A stretch of 24,277 nt of DNA from a virus (lineage: Duplodnaviria; Caudoviricetes): IMG/VR virus record IMGVR_UViG_3300033405_000179, positions 1 to 24,277 of that record; one strand, written 5' to 3'. Every line of letters starts with the position of its first letter. Positions within the stretch are counted from its first letter, which is position 1. The notes under the pieces were generated by a model. It had not been told where the DNA came from, did not search any database, and saw nothing but the letters and a program-made list of their open reading frames with translations. The position numbers were made by a program, and so were the translations under genes. This document shows positions 2,082 to 21,710 of this stretch, one piece after another.

Positions 2082-2999
2082 TTAGATAGCCTGAGATGGA
2101 ACAGGAACGTAAGGCATCCCGCCAAAGTGAATGAGATTGTTAAACTGTTGGCTGCATTGCGTCATAGTCTTCGAGCAGCCCGCGATTACGCTAAACGAGT
2201 CGCCCACTGCCGGAGTCAGTAGCCACGGAGCCGTTAGCTCCAGATGGCCGGAAGTGTCGTGCAGCTTGACGGTTTGGCTCAGCCCAGCATTGGCTCCTGC
2301 TGTGCAAGTGACCACGCCTTGCGTGAAGTAGCCAGCCGATTGACTGAATGTCGTGCTCGGAATCATTACCCATTGCGTCGTGCCTGAGGCAGCGGTGAAG
2401 TTCGTGGTGTAGCTGCTGGCGGTCAGGCCACAGTTGGCGTCACAGAACGACCATGGGCAGTTGGATTGAATGATTCGAGTGGGAACCTTCAGATTGAGCA
2501 AGTACAGCGGATCGGCACACTCGAACTCAACCTTCACGCGGTTGATGTCATTGATCTTGGTGATCGTGCCGTAGAATTTGGTTTCCAGCCCCGCGCTGAT
2601 GTTGCCGTATTGCCCTAAAGGCATATAAGCCGTGTACACAGTAACTGTTGCAGCATCAAACAAGTTATTGACGGCAGCTTGCAGAATCCCCACGTTCATG
2701 CCCTTGTACCACGCTCCTTGCTGCGGAGCACAGGTAAGGGTCATGGTGTTGGCGTTCATGTTGAAGGCCGCTTCGCTTGTGATAGGACCACGTGACCACA
2801 TGCCATACTTGGTTGAGCGGAAAGTTTGAGCGGCACCGCTGTATCCGGATGTTCCGGCTGCTACGGCTATATCGAATTGCCCGTCCGTCGTGGTCAACAC
2901 CTGTCCGTTGGGCAGATTGATGAGGAACAAATCTGCACGGATGCAGTTGGGGTTCTGTTGCAAGAACGTGATTAGGGATGCGGGCATGAGGCGCTTCAT
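2082..2999 (-). CDS. DUF2163/BR0599-family tail hub protein
   Basis: C-terminal GCSKTMTQCSQQFNNLIHFGGMPYVP and internal NCPWSFCDANC cysteine motifs; synteny between DUF2460 and NlpC/P60. Confidence 0.85.
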   Translation of the reverse strand: MKRLMPASLITFLQQNPNCIRADLFLINLPNGQVLTTTDGQFDIAVAAGTSGYSGAAQTFRSTKYGMWSRGPITSEAAFNMNANTMTLTCAPQQGAWYKGMNVGILQAAVNNLFDAATVTVYTAYMPLGQYGNISAGLETKFYGTITKINDINRVKVEFECADPLYLLNLKVPTRIIQSNCPWSFCDANCGLTASSYTTNFTAASGTTQWVMIPSTTFSQSAGYFTQGVVTCTAGANAGLSQTVKLHDTSGHLELTAPWLLTPAVGDSFSVIAGCSKTMTQCSQQFNNLIHFGGMPYVPVPSQAI

Positions 3000-3661
3000 T
3001 ACACGCCTCCTGCATTTGCGATAGCGCCATAGGTGGTGCCAGCAACGAACTCGCTCGTGAACTTAATTCCTTGGAACATCCACTGGTCAACACCACTGTT
3101 GATCGTGTACGACCGCACAGCATCAATCGTGTCCTCGCTGAATCGGCATAGGTAGTAGAACGATCCCGTCCATGTCAGCGTGACATTGTTAGCGGGTGCT
3201 GCCGGGAACATGACCACACCAGTTGAACTGATAGACCAGTTGGCGTTGATCGTGCCGTTGACGTAGATCGTCGGCGAGCCATTAAGGTTCTGGATGATGT
3301 CCGGCTGCCCGTTGATATTGCGGGAAAGCTGGAACGCTGTATTGCTTCCGTTCGTCTGCCCAGTCCCGAACTGTGCGCCCACCACGGAGTTGTCCTGGGG
3401 ATCGGTGAACAGGAAAGGATTTGCGCCGCCAGCGGTGGCCATAAACGTCCCAAGGAACTGAGCCACCACGCTGGCCGCTGTATGCTCATGTCCCGTGACG
3501 TGGTCAAGACCGAACTCGAACTGCCACACCGGGTAGGGCTGGAGCGCGATGGCATTGGTGATGCCCGCCGCAGTCTTCTGCCGCACGGTGTTGAACACCG
3601 GGGTTTTCTTCAAGCCACTGGCCATACTCAGCGGCATCGTTGGCATAACGTAGCACGACAT
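2999..3661 (-). CDS. DUF2460-family distal tail protein
   Basis: FLFTDPQD, FGTG..TAFQL, GVVMFPAAPANNVTLTWTGSFYYLCRF motifs; directly follows the tape measure gene. Confidence 0.8.
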   Translation of the reverse strand: MSCYVMPTMPLSMASGLKKTPVFNTVRQKTAAGITNAIALQPYPVWQFEFGLDHVTGHEHTAASVVAQFLGTFMATAGGANPFLFTDPQDNSVVGAQFGTGQTNGSNTAFQLSRNINGQPDIIQNLNGSPTIYVNGTINANWSISSTGVVMFPAAPANNVTLTWTGSFYYLCRFSEDTIDAVRSYTINSGVDQWMFQGIKFTSEFVAGTTYGAIANAGGV

Positions 3662-16173: not shown

Positions 16174-16251
16174 AATCAATGAGTTACAAACGTGAATTTG
16201 GGTTACACACGCGGAAACGGTCGGCGCCGGGCACGTGGAATCAACGACTTA
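16174..16251. promoter_or_regulatory. Two IHF consensus sites flanking a candidate cos/packaging site
   Basis: AATCAAtgagTTA (16174-16186) and AATCAAcgacTTA (16239-16251) both match WATCAANNNNTTR exactly. They lie between the HNH gene and terS, the usual cos location. Confidence 0.55.
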
Positions 16252-17101
16252 GAGAATCCGACACCGGCAGGGTATCTGAGGGGTGGTAGGCGGGGTGACC
16301 ACCGCCGGGTGCGGGTGTAACTGGCGGCCGCTGTGCCTGTGCTTCCGCCTTACGGCGCTGGGTAAGTCTCCGCTCGCACTCATCAGCCGGGGTTGCCATC
16401 TCAATTACTCTGGCTCCGGCTTGTTCAAGTGCTTTGACGATGCCAGAGTTGCGATTGGCGATAACGAGCCATACGTGATGCTTGCTGTACTGTGTGCGTT
16501 GGATGAATTGATCTCTCAATGCAAGTACGGAACCAGCAGCATCGGGCATACCTTCGTGCATCGGTAGACCTGTGAGCTGTTGCATTGCCACGTCGTAATC
16601 AAATACGTGGTCGTTGGGCTGTTTGTGCTGCTCAACGTAGCTGCTCTTGCCGCTTCCTGCCGGGCCTGTGATAACTGTTGTGTTTGATCGGTCACCCAGG
16701 TCGCCGAGGCGTGTGCCTTTTTCGCCGGTGAAGCCGGACTCGATAGCAGTCTTGCTGGAGTGGCAACCGTGGCAGAGTCCTTGCAACCGTGCCGGATCGT
16801 AGAAGGCTTGAACGCCGAAGTTATCCACGATAAGACGTGCAGATAAGATGTGGTCAACCTCTGTTGCTGCGCGATGCCCGCAGGATCGGCAGAGGATGTC
16901 TCGGCTCAGTACCTTCTGGCGCGTGGCTTGCCATCTCTTGTTTCGATACAGCTTGCGGATTGGATCATCGGCGCGATATGCGTCGTAAAGCGATCGTGAC
17001 CGTGTCGCGTTGTTGTCCTGCTGATGCCGGGCGCAGTACGCGCTGCCTTCTATGGCGCGGCTTTGGCAATCACGACACAGGCGACTAGGTAGGCTGGGCA
17101 T
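16241..17101 (-). CDS. Packaging-associated HNH endonuclease fused to a P-loop NTPase/kinase-like domain
   Basis: CRSC..EVDHI..LQGLCHGCHSSKT, then VITGPAGSGKS and FDYD. Start reassigned to MPSLPSRLC (17101). Confidence 0.85.
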   Translation of the reverse strand: MPSLPSRLCRDCQSRAIEGSAYCARHQQDNNATRSRSLYDAYRADDPIRKLYRNKRWQATRQKVLSRDILCRSCGHRAATEVDHILSARLIVDNFGVQAFYDPARLQGLCHGCHSSKTAIESGFTGEKGTRLGDLGDRSNTTVITGPAGSGKSSYVEQHKQPNDHVFDYDVAMQQLTGLPMHEGMPDAAGSVLALRDQFIQRTQYSKHHVWLVIANRNSGIVKALEQAGARVIEMATPADECERRLTQRRKAEAQAQRPPVTPAPGGGHPAYHPSDTLPVSDSLSR

Positions 17102-17257
17102 CTTCTTGCGTCTTAAGCCGCTGTTTACGGTTGGCGGGCTTTGCAAGCTCGGCTGCGGAAGATTTCCACGCATAAGTGCCCACGCTTATGCTGCTAAGCT
17201 GTTGATATGACGTTAGATAATCCACTGGAACAGACCTGACCTACTGTGAACGGAAGT

Positions 17258-17833
17258 TTACTTTGCGTCCGCTTCCAGCTTTTGCAGGTCTGCGAGCACG
17301 CTCGAATCCAGTGCTTTGGCGTCCGCGACCAGGTTGTTCCACGCTGCGATCAAATCGCTGAAGTTGACTGCGTTGAAATCGGAGCACAACTTTTCGAACG
17401 CTGTGGCTACGGCCAAGTCTTGGCTAACATTCGAGGCCTTGGACGCAGCGGCAGCAGCGATCGCGGACCCGAGTGCAGTCAGGTCTGCAACGAACTGACC
17501 GCTGTCCTTGACACTTGCGCTGGCCAGTTGACCGGCATCCTGCACAACAGTTAAGGTCTGCGGCAGTGCTGTGCACGCTGCTTTCTCGGCGTCGGACGTC
17601 AGGGTGATCAGTTTCGGCAGCGCTGTAATGCCTTTGCCGATCTCGGTCTCAATCCAGTTAACGCCGCGCTTGATTTCGTTGAAGATTGTCTGAAGTGTCT
17701 GCATTGCCTGCTCCTCATGGAAGTCTGCGCCCGACTTGCGGGCCTTGATGCGATCGTAAATGCCGAAGGCGACCACAACGGCGCCCATGGCGGCAAAGCC
17801 GATGGCATCGATCGCTTGTTGCGAGATGAACAT
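17258..17833 (-). CDS. Hypothetical Ala-rich helical protein; possible N-terminal membrane anchor; alternative start at 17704
   Basis: Co-oriented ORF; hydrophobic AIGFAAMGAVVVAFGIY segment; GAGGAG Shine-Dalgarno before the internal ATG at 17704. Confidence 0.65.
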   Translation of the reverse strand: MFISQQAIDAIGFAAMGAVVVAFGIYDRIKARKSGADFHEEQAMQTLQTIFNEIKRGVNWIETEIGKGITALPKLITLTSDAEKAACTALPQTLTVVQDAGQLASASVKDSGQFVADLTALGSAIAAAAASKASNVSQDLAVATAFEKLCSDFNAVNFSDLIAAWNNLVADAKALDSSVLADLQKLEADAK

Positions 17834-17849
17834 GTAGTTGAACCTGACG

Positions 17850-18980
17850 GTATGGGCCCGGCGGCGCGGCTCTGATGGCCGCAGCGAGCGCCGGGCTGGT
17901 GGGATCTGGGCGGCTCAATTATGAGCCCTGAATCCAAAGGACTTAGATCCGATCGGCATGGCTCAACAATGAGCCATGATGAAAGTAAAGATAGTTGCCG
18001 GTCGTTTCGTGCTGCCGCGCTCAGGCGACTCTGGCCACCGGCCTGCCAGGAAACTGCGTAATCTTGTCCTTCATTAATAAGAGCGATTGTGAACGGGATT
18101 TCCGGACACCTTGGCAGACCTATCTGCGAGATAGTCGAGATATAGGGGCCTGTTCCGGCCCCTCTCGCTGTGCGATTCACCCGACCCATCTTGAAGCTGG
18201 ACGAGTAGTAAAGTCATCGGCAGTAGAACTCAGTGGCTAGTAGCTACGCTCGCCGCTCGATCAGGTCACGGCCTCCTGCGCTTGAGGCGCTCCGGCCTGA
18301 AGCATATTACCGGGAAACAGCTCGCGGCGTGTTTCCGGATGGTCACTCTATGTAATGGAAGCTAGCTACTCGGCGCTGCTCAGCAAGGCGGGGGACTTGA
18401 GGGAAACGTATAGCTAGGCGTGACCATCCCCAAGGTAATAGAGTATGTAGAAACACACTCTTACCTCAGAGTAATCACACCATAGCTCAGAGGCAGGTCC
18501 ACCAGTGGGGTTTCCGTTGAGCTTGCCGTGGCTTCGCGCGCCTTGTCGTTTACGTAACAGGTCAGCCGGTAAATCATTAGTTCTGGCTGCATCTTCCACT
18601 CTATGACCCCGGCAGGGCGTTACCTCCATCTGGCTTCCAGCGGCTTTCGCCTGCCTGCCTTCATCCGGGGAAAACAATCACTGAATACAGACCTTGTGCG
18701 CGAAACGGGCTTTCTTCCTTCAGGGATCGCAATGAGACTAAATCGAACTAATAAGCTCTCACCGCGGCTTAGGTCGTCCCCAGCCTCACTGGAATCATCC
18801 AGCTTATCTGTGACCGTTAACTTCATCACCTAAACGGCAACCGTGTGTTTTCTTCGGTCTGAATCCGTACTGCTATTTTTAGGTTAGCCCTGAAGCTCTC
18901 GGCGTCAAAGCTATCCGATAAATCCATAATAGGGCGACGGGCCGGGTGCCTATGTTTGGCACTCCGGCCACATTGCCCTC
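17850..18980. ncRNA. Candidate large structured non-coding RNA region
   Basis: About 1.1 kb with no credible ORF. Many nested 6-10 bp helices form multibranch junctions. Begins with a hairpin directly at a promoter-like repeat. Strand and ends are uncertain. Confidence 0.55.
18064..18108 (-). promoter_or_regulatory. Putative phage-sigma (late) promoter, copy B
   Basis: TGTCCGGAAATCCCGTTCACAATCGCTCTTATTAATGAAGGACAA; 35/45 identical, ungapped, to 18973-19017. Confidence 0.6.
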
Positions 18981-19017
18981 TATGAATTAGAGCGTTTCAG
19001 AACGGCTTTTCCGGACA
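18973..19017 (-). promoter_or_regulatory. Putative phage-sigma (late) promoter, copy A, overlapping the 3' end of the sigma gene
   Basis: TGTCCGGAAAAGCCGTTCTGAAACGCTCTAATTCATAGAGGGCAA; 35/45 identical to 18064-18108. Confidence 0.6.
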
Positions 19018-19492
19018 TCTTTCTTCCGAGCCGTGACAGTTTCTTGCGGATGGCATCGCCGGTAACACCGTAGCGCTCTCCGATCTCGTCAAAGGTCAGC
19101 CCGGCCAACAGGTGCTCGCAGTATTCCCTGTCGCGGCCTTGGATGCCGTCCGGAAGTGATGGAATATCGGGATCGTCATCCGGCACGAACTCCAGGACGT
19201 TTCCAGCTTCATCGAGCGGCAAGGCACACTCCCGATGCTTGCGCCTCATGTCGATCATGGTGTGCGTGATGATCGTGTTGAGCCAGCTTTCAGGCTGATT
19301 GATCCGTGAAAGATCCGATTGCAGAACTTTGATTGCGATCTCCTGCATCAAGTCGTCAGCTTCCTGCCCGATGCCGAACACCCATGCGCGTGATTGGCAG
19401 AACCGGCGCAGCATCCTGAAAAAAGCAGTCTCATGTGTGGCCGGATCAGAACGATACGCGTCGAATACGGCAGCGACATTACCGACCGACAT
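18980..19492 (-). CDS. ECF-like sigma-70 family factor, probable late-gene activator
   Basis: Region 2 ADDLMQEIAIKV..WLNTIITHTMIDMRRK and region 4 HTH GLTFDEIGERYGVTGDAIRKKLSR. Start MSVGNV (19492) has a GAGGT Shine-Dalgarno. Confidence 0.85.
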   Translation of the reverse strand: MSVGNVAAVFDAYRSDPATHETAFFRMLRRFCQSRAWVFGIGQEADDLMQEIAIKVLQSDLSRINQPESWLNTIITHTMIDMRRKHRECALPLDEAGNVLEFVPDDDPDIPSLPDGIQGRDREYCEHLLAGLTFDEIGERYGVTGDAIRKKLSRLGRKMSGKAVLKRSNS

Positions 19493-19727
19493 AGACCACC
19501 TCGCGCTCGCGGAGCTGGCGCTCGAACTCATCGGGCTCCATCAGTGTGACCTTGTAATTGGGCTTCCAGGCATCGCGCACGGCGATGGCGTACTCGTTAC
19601 CTTCGGCGGCCGCTATCATCAGGCGGGCATCAGGTCGCAGGGAGAGTGGGGTGCGACGGCGCAGCTCTTGAACTTTGGGGGTGCGAACGTACTCGACATC
19701 AACAGCGGTGGGATTGATAGCAGGCAT
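19479..19727 (-). CDS. Hypothetical protein (82 aa)
   Basis: AAGG Shine-Dalgarno; co-oriented; 3' end overlaps the sigma start. Confidence 0.6.
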   Translation of the reverse strand: MPAINPTAVDVEYVRTPKVQELRRRTPLSLRPDARLMIAAAEGNEYAIAVRDAWKPNYKVTLMEPDEFERQLREREVVYVGR

Positions 19728-19853
19728 GGGTAGGAACCTTTCGGGGAAGTAAGTTGCCGAGTCGGGCTCGGGCGGGGTGGAATGTGGATAATTAAGGGGC
19801 AGGATTAGTTGGGCCGGAAATCCGGCCCAATGGAATTGAGCTGAGCTGAAAAC

Positions 19854-20120
19854 TCAGCCCAATGAATCGGACTGCTTTGCGTCGAGCATGGTTGCGTAAC
19901 GGGCCAGCTTGCGGTCGAACTCCGCTGCATCACGGATCAGCTGGGCCGATATACGCTCTAACTCGGACCGATACTTCGCAACGGCGACTGCATAGTGCAC
20001 GGTCATACGATCCAGAGCAGCGACGGTCTCACGATTCGCGGCGATAGCGGCACGAAGGTTATCCAGGTTAGCTGCGATTTGTGACTCGATGTCGGAGAGG
20101 TCTTGCAGGCGCGTGGTCAT
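19854..20120 (-). CDS. Hypothetical coiled-coil protein (88 aa)
   Basis: Starts 3 nt after the HNH-AP2 stop; GGAGG upstream; heptad-like pattern. Confidence 0.65.
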   Translation of the reverse strand: MTTRLQDLSDIESQIAANLDNLRAAIAANRETVAALDRMTVHYAVAVAKYRSELERISAQLIRDAAEFDRKLARYATMLDAKQSDSLG

Positions 20121-20123
20121 AGG

Positions 20124-20678
20124 CTAGGCTGCCTCCTGCGTGGACTGCGCGGCCTGCGTGGCCGCGTTGAGGCGCGCGAAGGCACCGTGAAGGATTGTTG
20201 CTGCTTGGTCGTAAGCTTCAGCAGCGGCTTCTGCTGTGGGGAATGTGCCGAGGTGAATCTGGTGGTTGTTGACGCCTATCTGCGCTTGAAAGGTGTCGAA
20301 CTTGGTGTGGACGACGCCGCGGAAGCCAGAGGTGTTGTTGGCGTGCAGCTTGCGGTTGGCTCCATTTTGCTGGCGCGTTGCGATCCGAAGGTTCCCGCGA
20401 GTGTTATTGAGGCTGTCGCCATCACGGTGGTCTGTATCGAGGCCGGCTGGAGTGTTGGTCAACCAGCGGTGAAGATAGACCTGCTTGCCATCGACGCGGC
20501 CCACGGTGTACCACTTTCCAGATGTCGGGTTGAACCAAGCCTGCCAGGTGTGCGCGGTCACGCGGAAAAGATCCTCTGCGCTAATCGTGGTTGTTTTGCC
20601 CTGGCTAAGCTGAATCGTTGCGGCGTCGTCGCGCCAATCGAAGTTGATAAGGTTGTTGTGCTTCCTTGCTCTTGACAT
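20124..20678 (-). CDS. HNH endonuclease with C-terminal AP2 DNA-binding domain
   Basis: YLHR..DHRDGDSLNNTRGNLR..N, then NTSGFRGV..AQI..HLGTFPTAEAAAEAYDQAA..HGAFARLN. Confidence 0.9.
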   Translation of the reverse strand: MSRARKHNNLINFDWRDDAATIQLSQGKTTTISAEDLFRVTAHTWQAWFNPTSGKWYTVGRVDGKQVYLHRWLTNTPAGLDTDHRDGDSLNNTRGNLRIATRQQNGANRKLHANNTSGFRGVVHTKFDTFQAQIGVNNHQIHLGTFPTAEAAAEAYDQAATILHGAFARLNAATQAAQSTQEAA

Positions 20679-21069
20679 GTGGAATCCTTGAGGATCTCCG
20701 GCAGAGGGTGCCGGATGACGGTAGGCTGCTCGAATGGCAGCTCTTGGTGGGTGTGTACTGTGTAATAACTAGAGCCAGAGGGCCTGAATGGAAAACTGCT
20801 GTACTTCGTGCCTCTACCCTTCTTTAGTATGAAGCCCACACCTCCGAAACCCCGGAAAACTCACCTAAGTTGTTGAAAACAACGTGTCACACCTCTTTTG
20901 CGACTGCACCACAAATGGTGCAAATGATTGAATGCGGGTATTGACAGATGAGTTAACACTGTTTCCTTGACGCACGGCTGGACCTGTGCGTATGGCAGGC
21001 TGGTGGTGCGGCTACATCTATCCTGCCACACGAAGCGCGAGTGCCAAAGCTATGCCCTTTCGGGCACAG

Positions 21070-21094
21070 AAAAAGCCCGGCACGAGGCCGGGCT
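21070..21094 (-). terminator. Rho-independent terminator ending the xis operon
   Basis: Minus strand AGCCCGGC-ctcgt-GCCGGGCT followed by TTTT, about 20 nt after the stop at 21117. Confidence 0.75.
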
Positions 21095-21116
21095 GAGTGC
21101 CGCAGGATGTCTTTGA

Positions 21117-21710
21117 CTAGATACTTACGGCTCGGGCGCCAAGCTCTGTCATTTGCAGGATGCGCCTGACCAGATCCAGCAGCTCGGCCTCGCGAGTGGC
21201 GGCGTCCACCCCACTGTACTGCTCGGTGATCGTGGAGACGATGGAATCCACCCGGTCCTGCTTGGCCGGTACCGAGGCGGCACGGCGCCGACCTTTGCCG
21301 GATGCAACCTGTACGGGCTGTGCAATAGGATCTTCGCAAAGCACGAAGGCCCCTGATGGATCATCGAGATCGAGGATGCGCGGGATAGCCCCTTCGCTGC
21401 ACCCCAGGGCAGCGGCGATGGCACGGAATATCGCCGGGGCCCAAGTTCCCTCGGCCTCGGGGTCGAATTTCGCACCGTAATGGATGAGCGCGGCACCGAG
21501 AAGAGGGCGTGAGCCGTAATAGAGCTCCGCGGTATCGACGAGATTCTTGCGCGCGTGTTTTACGTCCTTCGACGGTTTTATAGCTTCCCGTAGCTCGATA
21601 GCTTCCAGAGAGGCTTCCAGGGCGGAACGGTTGAATACTTCCGCGGCAGGTTCGGGAACCGTGGTGGTAGTCGGGGATGTCGGCGCGGGAAACATGATCA
21701 GGTTGCTCAT
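21117..21710 (-). CDS. Hypothetical protein (197 aa)
   Basis: ATGA overlap with the upstream gene; GGAGG Shine-Dalgarno; followed by a terminator. Confidence 0.7.
   Translation of the reverse strand: MSNLIMFPAPTSPTTTTVPEPAAEVFNRSALEASLEAIELREAIKPSKDVKHARKNLVDTAELYYGSRPLLGAALIHYGAKFDPEAEGTWAPAIFRAIAAALGCSEGAIPRILDLDDPSGAFVLCEDPIAQPVQVASGKGRRRAASVPAKQDRVDSIVSTITEQYSGVDAATREAELLDLVRRILQMTELGARAVSI

Follow-up and report, generated by a model that had tools for sequence, protein, structure and literature searches.

A putative large structured RNA between the sigma factor gene and the packaging genes of a phage

We analyzed the whole of a 24,277-base virus record (hereafter, the window), which is about 35% complete. 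Its genes follow one another on the minus strand: an integrase gene, small genes, an HNH/AP2 gene, an 82-aa ORF, and a sigma-70 family gene come first; after a long gap follow a 148-aa gene, an HNH/ATPase gene, and the terminase, capsid, portal, and protease genes. The last 570 bases of the record match, at up to 78% across their full length, a gene that 203/251 Acidobacteriota genomes carry; presumably it is an RNase G/E-like host gene. Because of this match, we read the record as a prophage of Acidobacteriota; the comparison of this gene covered that phylum alone. Identical DNA was present in peat metagenome runs, one of which (X1) may be its source. No RNA data set was listed as containing the stretch, a result that has no bearing on expression. 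The features flanking the gap are as follows.

19479 to 19727, minus strand: 82-aa ORF upstream of the sigma gene, also upstream of sigma in the homologous phage locus L008 (43% identity)
18980 to 19531, minus strand: sigma-70 family gene with regions 2 and 4 (PF04542, E 1e-9; phrog_1740)
18973 to 19021, minus strand: promoter-like copy A, overlapping the last bases of the sigma gene and matching copy B at 38/49 positions
18118 to 18979, minus strand: putative large structured RNA of ~860 nt, with a 5′ end predicted from copy A and a 3′ end predicted at the final hairpin ahead of copy B
18064 to 18112, minus strand: promoter-like copy B, a 49-nt repeat (38/49 identical to copy A)
17853 to 17979, minus strand: leader hairpins following copy B (z -4.4 to -5.5)
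17258 to 17704, minus strand: 148-aa gene, function not assigned (no Pfam or PHROG match)
16241 to 17173, minus strand: HNH/ATPase gene, the first of the packaging block

With the sigma protein as bait, we found no relative in viral contigs (a word search returned only the protein itself), and a full protein search returned distant proteins only. L008, which was located through the 148-aa protein, has the same gene order, and its sigma protein gave no BLASTP alignment to that of the window; both match phrog_1740. The 82-aa protein carries an LSLRP motif that is invariant in seven relatives, its ORF overlaps the start of the sigma gene, and it is possibly a partner of sigma. The 148-aa protein is alanine-rich and has few relatives. 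Since these measure 148–166 aa, the true start of the gene is likely 17704, and the stretches by which the 191- and 193-aa versions reach into the gap are not conserved. In locus L009, the gene preceding the 148-aa relative resembles what we take to be a peptidoglycan peptidase, so the 148-aa protein may be part of lysis.

With the downstream gene started at 17704, the gap (17705–18979) measures 1275 nt, while the other 26 gaps between chosen genes are at most 438 nt long, and at most 84 nt among the structural genes. The original prediction of a long interval without a credible ORF in an otherwise packed genome is thereby borne out. ORFs of 69–87 aa overlap the structured region, and their coding is not conserved: in the homologs L199 and L245, stops or frameshifts interrupt the 87-aa ORF that covers the core, and reading frames are likewise disrupted by stops and shifts from homolog to homolog. 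All ten helices that had been named in the gap are exact reverse complements, and the GAAA tetraloop on the minus strand and the long hairpin at 18931–18979 are present as described. Perfect helices of at least 7 bp within 200 nt numbered 23, compared with 9.9 ± 3.3 in shuffled sequences (2.3-fold; 0/200 shuffles as high). The excess of 6-bp perfect helices was modest (51 versus 38 ± 6; 7/200 shuffles as high). Folding energy over 18000–18985, compared with 20 shuffles per strand, gave z = -5.8 for the minus strand and z = -2.0 for the plus strand; the minus strand thus folds better than its shuffles.

We found five partial homologs (L008, L132, L071, L199, and L245) and several short contig fragments. 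All loci found lie in mobile elements, and the genes downstream differ among them. A core of ~320 nt (18840–18523) recurs in L199 and L245 and partly in L132, whereas L132, L071, and L008 share a 3′ hairpin domain with the window. In L008, a 440-nt structured gap (z -4.9) directly follows the sigma gene and shares the 5′ hairpin and the 3′ block with the window; its 3′ domain scored 52, a value reached by none of 200 shuffles. A loose pattern of the 3′ block, run over 29 of 64 metagenome parts, returned at least 117 loci, which sorted into L132 and L071 (phage-like and structured), L070 (the window itself), and seven short intergenic repeats; the remaining loci lacked the hairpin and were judged chance. 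L132 showed a second shared block at 18567–18509 (E 6e-6), and a pattern made from this block led to L199, the one real locus of 61 in viral contigs. L199 is a 55.6-kb phage with a gap of ~700 nt (z -3.4) that aligns to the window by BLAST at E 4e-18. The core pattern gave no real locus among 15 in genomes, and two 3′-domain patterns in viral contigs gave one real locus each, of 2 and of 31, both being the L008 record. Because motif searches yielded L132, L071, and L199, the motifs used are conserved in them by construction; the helices scored below lie mostly outside the patterns.

L245 was found in the Acidobacteriota genome G286 with a sequence-only model of 18500–18670 (E 1.8e-4). It sits in an integrase-bearing island beside a tRNA-Pro gene, the gene next to its core is convergent, and it carries helices P2–P4 and the 5′ pseudoknot strand, all of which lie outside the search model. 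Short contigs in the metagenome runs X1 and X2 match 18533–18576 (in X1 at all but six positions), and past this match they carry the pseudoknot strand in the form of L199 and L245; two further contigs from X1 match the 5′ part of L199.

The family is rare in genomes: seven model or pattern searches of 151–401 Acidobacteriota genomes each, in samples that overlap, gave true hits in G286 only. A DNA search hit 0/137 genomes. An R1 model search gave 5/151 hits, four of them rejected on alignment, and a second gave 1/151, also rejected. R2 searches gave 1/151, 2/151 (the second in coding DNA), 1/151, and 1/151, and one of the two hits of a pattern search (2/401) was confirmed. BLASTN against annotated phages and plasmids returned either no match or chance pieces of 23–32 nt, and the five loci with capsid relatives all lacked this region. 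The core was not found in L008 or L071, nor the 3′ motif in L199; among the homologs, core and 3′ domain occur together only in the partial L132. The structural elements, in the order of the putative RNA, are as follows.

18931 to 18979, minus strand: 5′ hairpin (pair probability ~1.0), with a similar hairpin after the sigma stop codon in L008
18523 to 18840, minus strand: conserved core, with homologs L199, L245, and part of L132
18840-36/18527-23, minus strand: P1, closes the core
18835-29/18773-67, minus strand: P2, with a variable insert
18766-57/18737-28, minus strand: P3, with a 19-nt loop
18745 to 18752, minus strand: 5′ strand of the pseudoknot, in the P3 loop (8/8 pairs in 3/3 sequences)
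18726-16, minus strand: P4, a small hairpin
18704-698/18539-33, minus strand: P5, closes the second junction
18589-85/18567-63, minus strand: P8
18576 to 18583, minus strand: 3′ strand of the pseudoknot, in the P8 loop (L199/L245 form also in the ends of the X1 and X2 contig fragments)
18561-41, minus strand: P10
18402 to 18515, minus strand: middle domain of P11 (in L245 and L132), P12 (in L245), and a long hairpin (18481–18417)
18118 to 18210, minus strand: 3′ domain of GGGUGAAU linker, PC2, PC3, and a third hairpin, with homologs L008, L132, and L071
18175-65, minus strand: PC2 hairpin, covarying
18163-44, minus strand: PC3 hairpin with a GGAAC loop, covarying

The architecture is modular (5′ hairpin, core, middle domain, and 3′ domain), and several junctions and one pseudoknot are supported, from few homologs. 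Inside P5, the second junction holds P6, a variable hairpin, P8, and P10; the variable hairpin is the one capped by the GAAA tetraloop, and it is far longer in L199. We scored 15 hand-anchored helices: pairing holds in 232/236 cells, and both partners differ from the window in 26/75 columns. Of the changed cells, 50/54 still pair; these helices were hand-picked on the minus strand, which inflates both the pairing and the G-U bias (8 G-U, 1 A-C). When partners were slid by 1–3 nt as a control, pairing fell to 31%–45%. A MAFFT alignment of P3–P4 gave pairing in 36/36 cells with 6/12 pairs changed on both sides, whereas none of 500 shuffles had as many cells paired and slid partners paired at 31%–50%. 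The check on covariation that had been proposed for this stretch thus came out with compensatory changes in independent homologs. In the 8-bp pseudoknot between the P3 and P8 loops (18752-45/18583-76), five of the eight pairs are changed on both sides in L199 and L245 with pairing intact. Full cores number three, and L199 and L245 have identical pseudoknot letters, so these five swaps may represent few independent events.

The structure model leaves out the minimum-free-energy and RNAalifold predictions for the core, which conflict with the covariation; run on two cores, RNAalifold returned a different fold that has no compensatory pairs. L245 folded no better than its shuffles (z -0.2). The nested helix map of the original prediction survived in part: three of its ten helices (18144–63, 18313–36, and 18433–66) agree with the conserved fold and seven clash with it, six by using strands that the homologs keep in other helices and one by crossing P6. 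Perfect complementarity alone does not place a helix in the fold.

Taken together, these comparisons indicate that the stretch very probably encodes a conserved structured RNA. Decayed or chance intergenic DNA, or a set of short ORFs, would fit the overlapping frames of 69–87 aa and the small number of homologs; the strength of the BLAST match to L199, the compensatory changes, and the failure of the frames to be kept make this explanation barely credible, and covariation refutes it in the main. We also considered a structured single-stranded DNA element such as an origin, a priming site, or a packaging signal. Covariation does not separate RNA from single-stranded DNA, several homologs fold alike on either strand (the reverse strand folds equally well in L199, L008, and L071), and the 3′ domain is like short intergenic repeats of cellular contigs. 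Against a DNA element, the sense strand folds better in the window, G-U pairs favor one strand, the region starts at a promoter-like site, and no replication gene adjoins the structured gap within the window. A DNA element is, on this evidence, very unlikely, and an RNA is the reading that we follow below.

The predicted ends of this RNA depend on the two promoter-like copies, which have what we take to be an ECF-type promoter look, with ECF-like boxes. The third-best place for the 49-nt repeat in the window matches at 26/49 only, and no sigma-70 consensus site was found near the structured gap. Both matches returned for the promoter pattern were judged chance. An RNA of about 870 nt, or of up to 1.1 kb, had been proposed: a structured RNA of ~860–870 nt between copies A and B is supported by covariation and by the absence of conserved coding, but 17850–18060 is a separate leader. 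The proposed sigma link also held in part, as a sigma gene adjoins the structured region here and in L008, but not at the loci that share the core. The promoter-like repeat was absent near all five homolog loci tested (best 26/49), and the domains are split among these loci; thus, the element is modular, and we propose a dependence on sigma for the window phage only.

We asked how far the RNA could instead form the start of a long late transcript, acting in cis on the downstream genes as an RNA antiterminator or a processing signal. HK022 put and the Bacillus EAR element are examples of RNA antiterminators. Consistent with such a leader, the RNA shares the strand of the genes, with a promoter-like site ahead of it and the packaging genes behind it, its 3′ domain precedes same-strand ORFs in L008, L071, and L132, and no terminator-like site was found on the minus strand of 17100–20200. 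However, a second promoter-like copy lies downstream of the RNA and probably serves the late genes, the downstream genes vary among homologs, the core of L245 opposes a convergent gene, and the RNA is far larger than known put-type elements. A leader is therefore unlikely. The variable neighbors and the convergent gene of L245 fit action in trans better, and we consider it rather likely that the RNA acts in trans as a molecule of its own.

Several short elements lie close to these sites. A partial third copy of the promoter-like motif is found at 17238–17261, just upstream of the HNH gene. The 52-nt hairpin at 17853–17904 is 85% identical to 5037–5088 of L008 and precedes the 148-aa gene in both phages; it is likely a cis-regulatory leader. 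Pairs of twin hairpins occur after copy B (17903–17979) and upstream of the operon of the 82-aa ORF and sigma (19807–19864), and are possibly antitermination or protein-binding sites. In L199, a 33-nt direct repeat (85%; 2990–3022 and 3103–3135) lies just upstream of its RNA locus and is possibly a different promoter.

We compared the RNA with known large RNAs of phages and bacteria. GOLLD is described as an RNA of more than 800 nt from phages and prophages, with a multi-junction build, kissing loops, and separable 5′ and 3′ domains (10.1101/2024.12.08.627333). GOLLD forms a 14-mer cage and ROOL an octameric cage, both protein-free and without a known function; kissing loops, several of them initially recognized through covariation, bridge the RNA chains (10.1101/2024.12.08.627333). 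ROOL is a large, ornate phage RNA with three pseudoknots, and bacterial RNAs of such size and complexity are rare (PMC5737381).

At ~860 nt by its predicted ends, the window RNA is of the size (~800 nt) and phage or prophage setting of GOLLD, and it shares with GOLLD the multi-junction build, kissing loops, and separable domains. It differs in its conserved motifs and in that its most conserved part is central; the model of the conserved GOLLD 3′ domain (RF02032) matched 0/3 records at E ≤ 10, a cut-off that no control passed. GOLLD often lies beside tRNA genes, whereas the window (in which we found no tRNA gene) and four of the five homolog loci are without one; the exception is a single tRNA-Pro ~6.5 kb from the L245 copy, at the edge of the island. 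Expression on lysis and the 14-mer cage are traits of GOLLD itself. With ROOL, the window RNA has in common that it is large, ornate, phage-borne, and pseudoknotted, but one pseudoknot was seen compared with three, and RF03087 gave no match at E ≤ 10 (0/3 records; no control passed either). OLE, raiA, and HEARO also belong to the large structured RNAs of bacteria, and for several such RNAs no biochemical function is known; the window RNA differs from them in having no Rfam hit. It also differs from HEARO, or omega RNA, which is associated with an IscB/IsrB ORF, in that no model matched and no ORF of this type lies inside or adjoining it. In line with the suggestion that the RNA may be new, no known class was matched at the Rfam gathering score. 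Three weak window hits at E ≤ 10 were all outside, or unrelated to, the structured feature, and whole-Rfam scans of the five homologs were empty.

Group II introns form a further comparison, since their domain I is a nested multi-junction with a long-range loop kiss of 7–8 bp. The core, a multi-junction with what we take to be an α/α′-like kiss, could accordingly be a domain-I-like scaffold that moves between elements, and the RNA a ribozyme or an intron-derived mobile RNA. Its patchy occurrence in unrelated elements (one genome across the seven Acidobacteriota model and pattern searches), the long invariant single-stranded motifs, and the long range spanned by the 8-bp kiss would suit such an RNA. 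However, neither domain 5 nor domain 6 was seen (RF00029, 0/3 records at E ≤ 10, a cut-off passed by 5/14 controls), no Rfam group I or group II family, D1–D4 included, was hit in the window, L199, or L245, no gene is interrupted, and there are no exons, no reverse transcriptase, and no conserved ORF inside. We therefore regard a catalytic or mobile RNA as doubtful.

The long non-coding stretch, the covarying multi-junction, the long-range pairing, and the location in mobile elements, all read from sequence, support an RNA of the large, ornate phage kind that is not a member of GOLLD or ROOL. We found no description of such a family in the literature covered, nor among the papers listed for motif text searches, with thin coverage of subscription journals. 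The family is likely undescribed, although part of this RNA may appear among the candidates in PMC10690425.

We propose the following course for the window phage. As the late genes switch on, the phage sigma would start a transcript at copy A, near 18979, which would end near 18118, ahead of copy B; copy B would then restart transcription toward the late genes. The RNA would work in trans. By analogy with GOLLD and ROOL, whose covariation-predicted kissing loops bridge chains, loop-loop contacts would be expected to assemble it into a multimer, which may serve as a scaffold or a decoy in lytic growth; a cage-like form is a tentative suggestion. For the reading as a whole, that is, a free-standing RNA of ~860 nt with a conserved core and kiss, transcribed by the phage sigma and self-assembling into a multimer, we estimate a probability of about 0.5.

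If this reading holds, a new and unrelated family with natural compensatory variants of the kiss would offer a direct test of cage building as a general phage strategy, and the dedicated sigma and promoter-like site would place such an RNA at a particular point in the phage cycle. A bolder version, which we regard as speculative and somewhat unlikely, sees here a third giant class of phage RNA, unrelated to GOLLD and ROOL and of modular build, that is exchanged between Acidobacteriota phages and islands and in which the kiss is an intermolecular, sequence-coded bridge. If true, the swaps in the kiss would give every element a separate cage made of its own RNA, under sigma control; if the RNA were not a cage, a new large ribozyme under phage sigma control would be the alternative.

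Elsewhere in the window, the second-largest gap (20679–21116, 438 nt), with structure near 20900–21200 (z about -3.5), is likely an early control region. L071 (minus strand, ~420–1130; z -6.0) and L008 (3345–3780; z -4.9) have large structured gaps that share only the 3′ domain with the window, and may be further RNA classes built on a common 3′ module. The seven short intergenic elements (L061, L097, L102, L117, L123, L149, and L159) stand alone in cellular contigs, at ~2501 of 5-kb loci, and are possibly REP-like repeats, a shared RNA module, or a case of convergence. Each carries GGGUGAAU, a hairpin, and a GGAAC-loop hairpin like the 3′ domain; the first hairpin covaries, and L117 has an apparent inverted partner copy.
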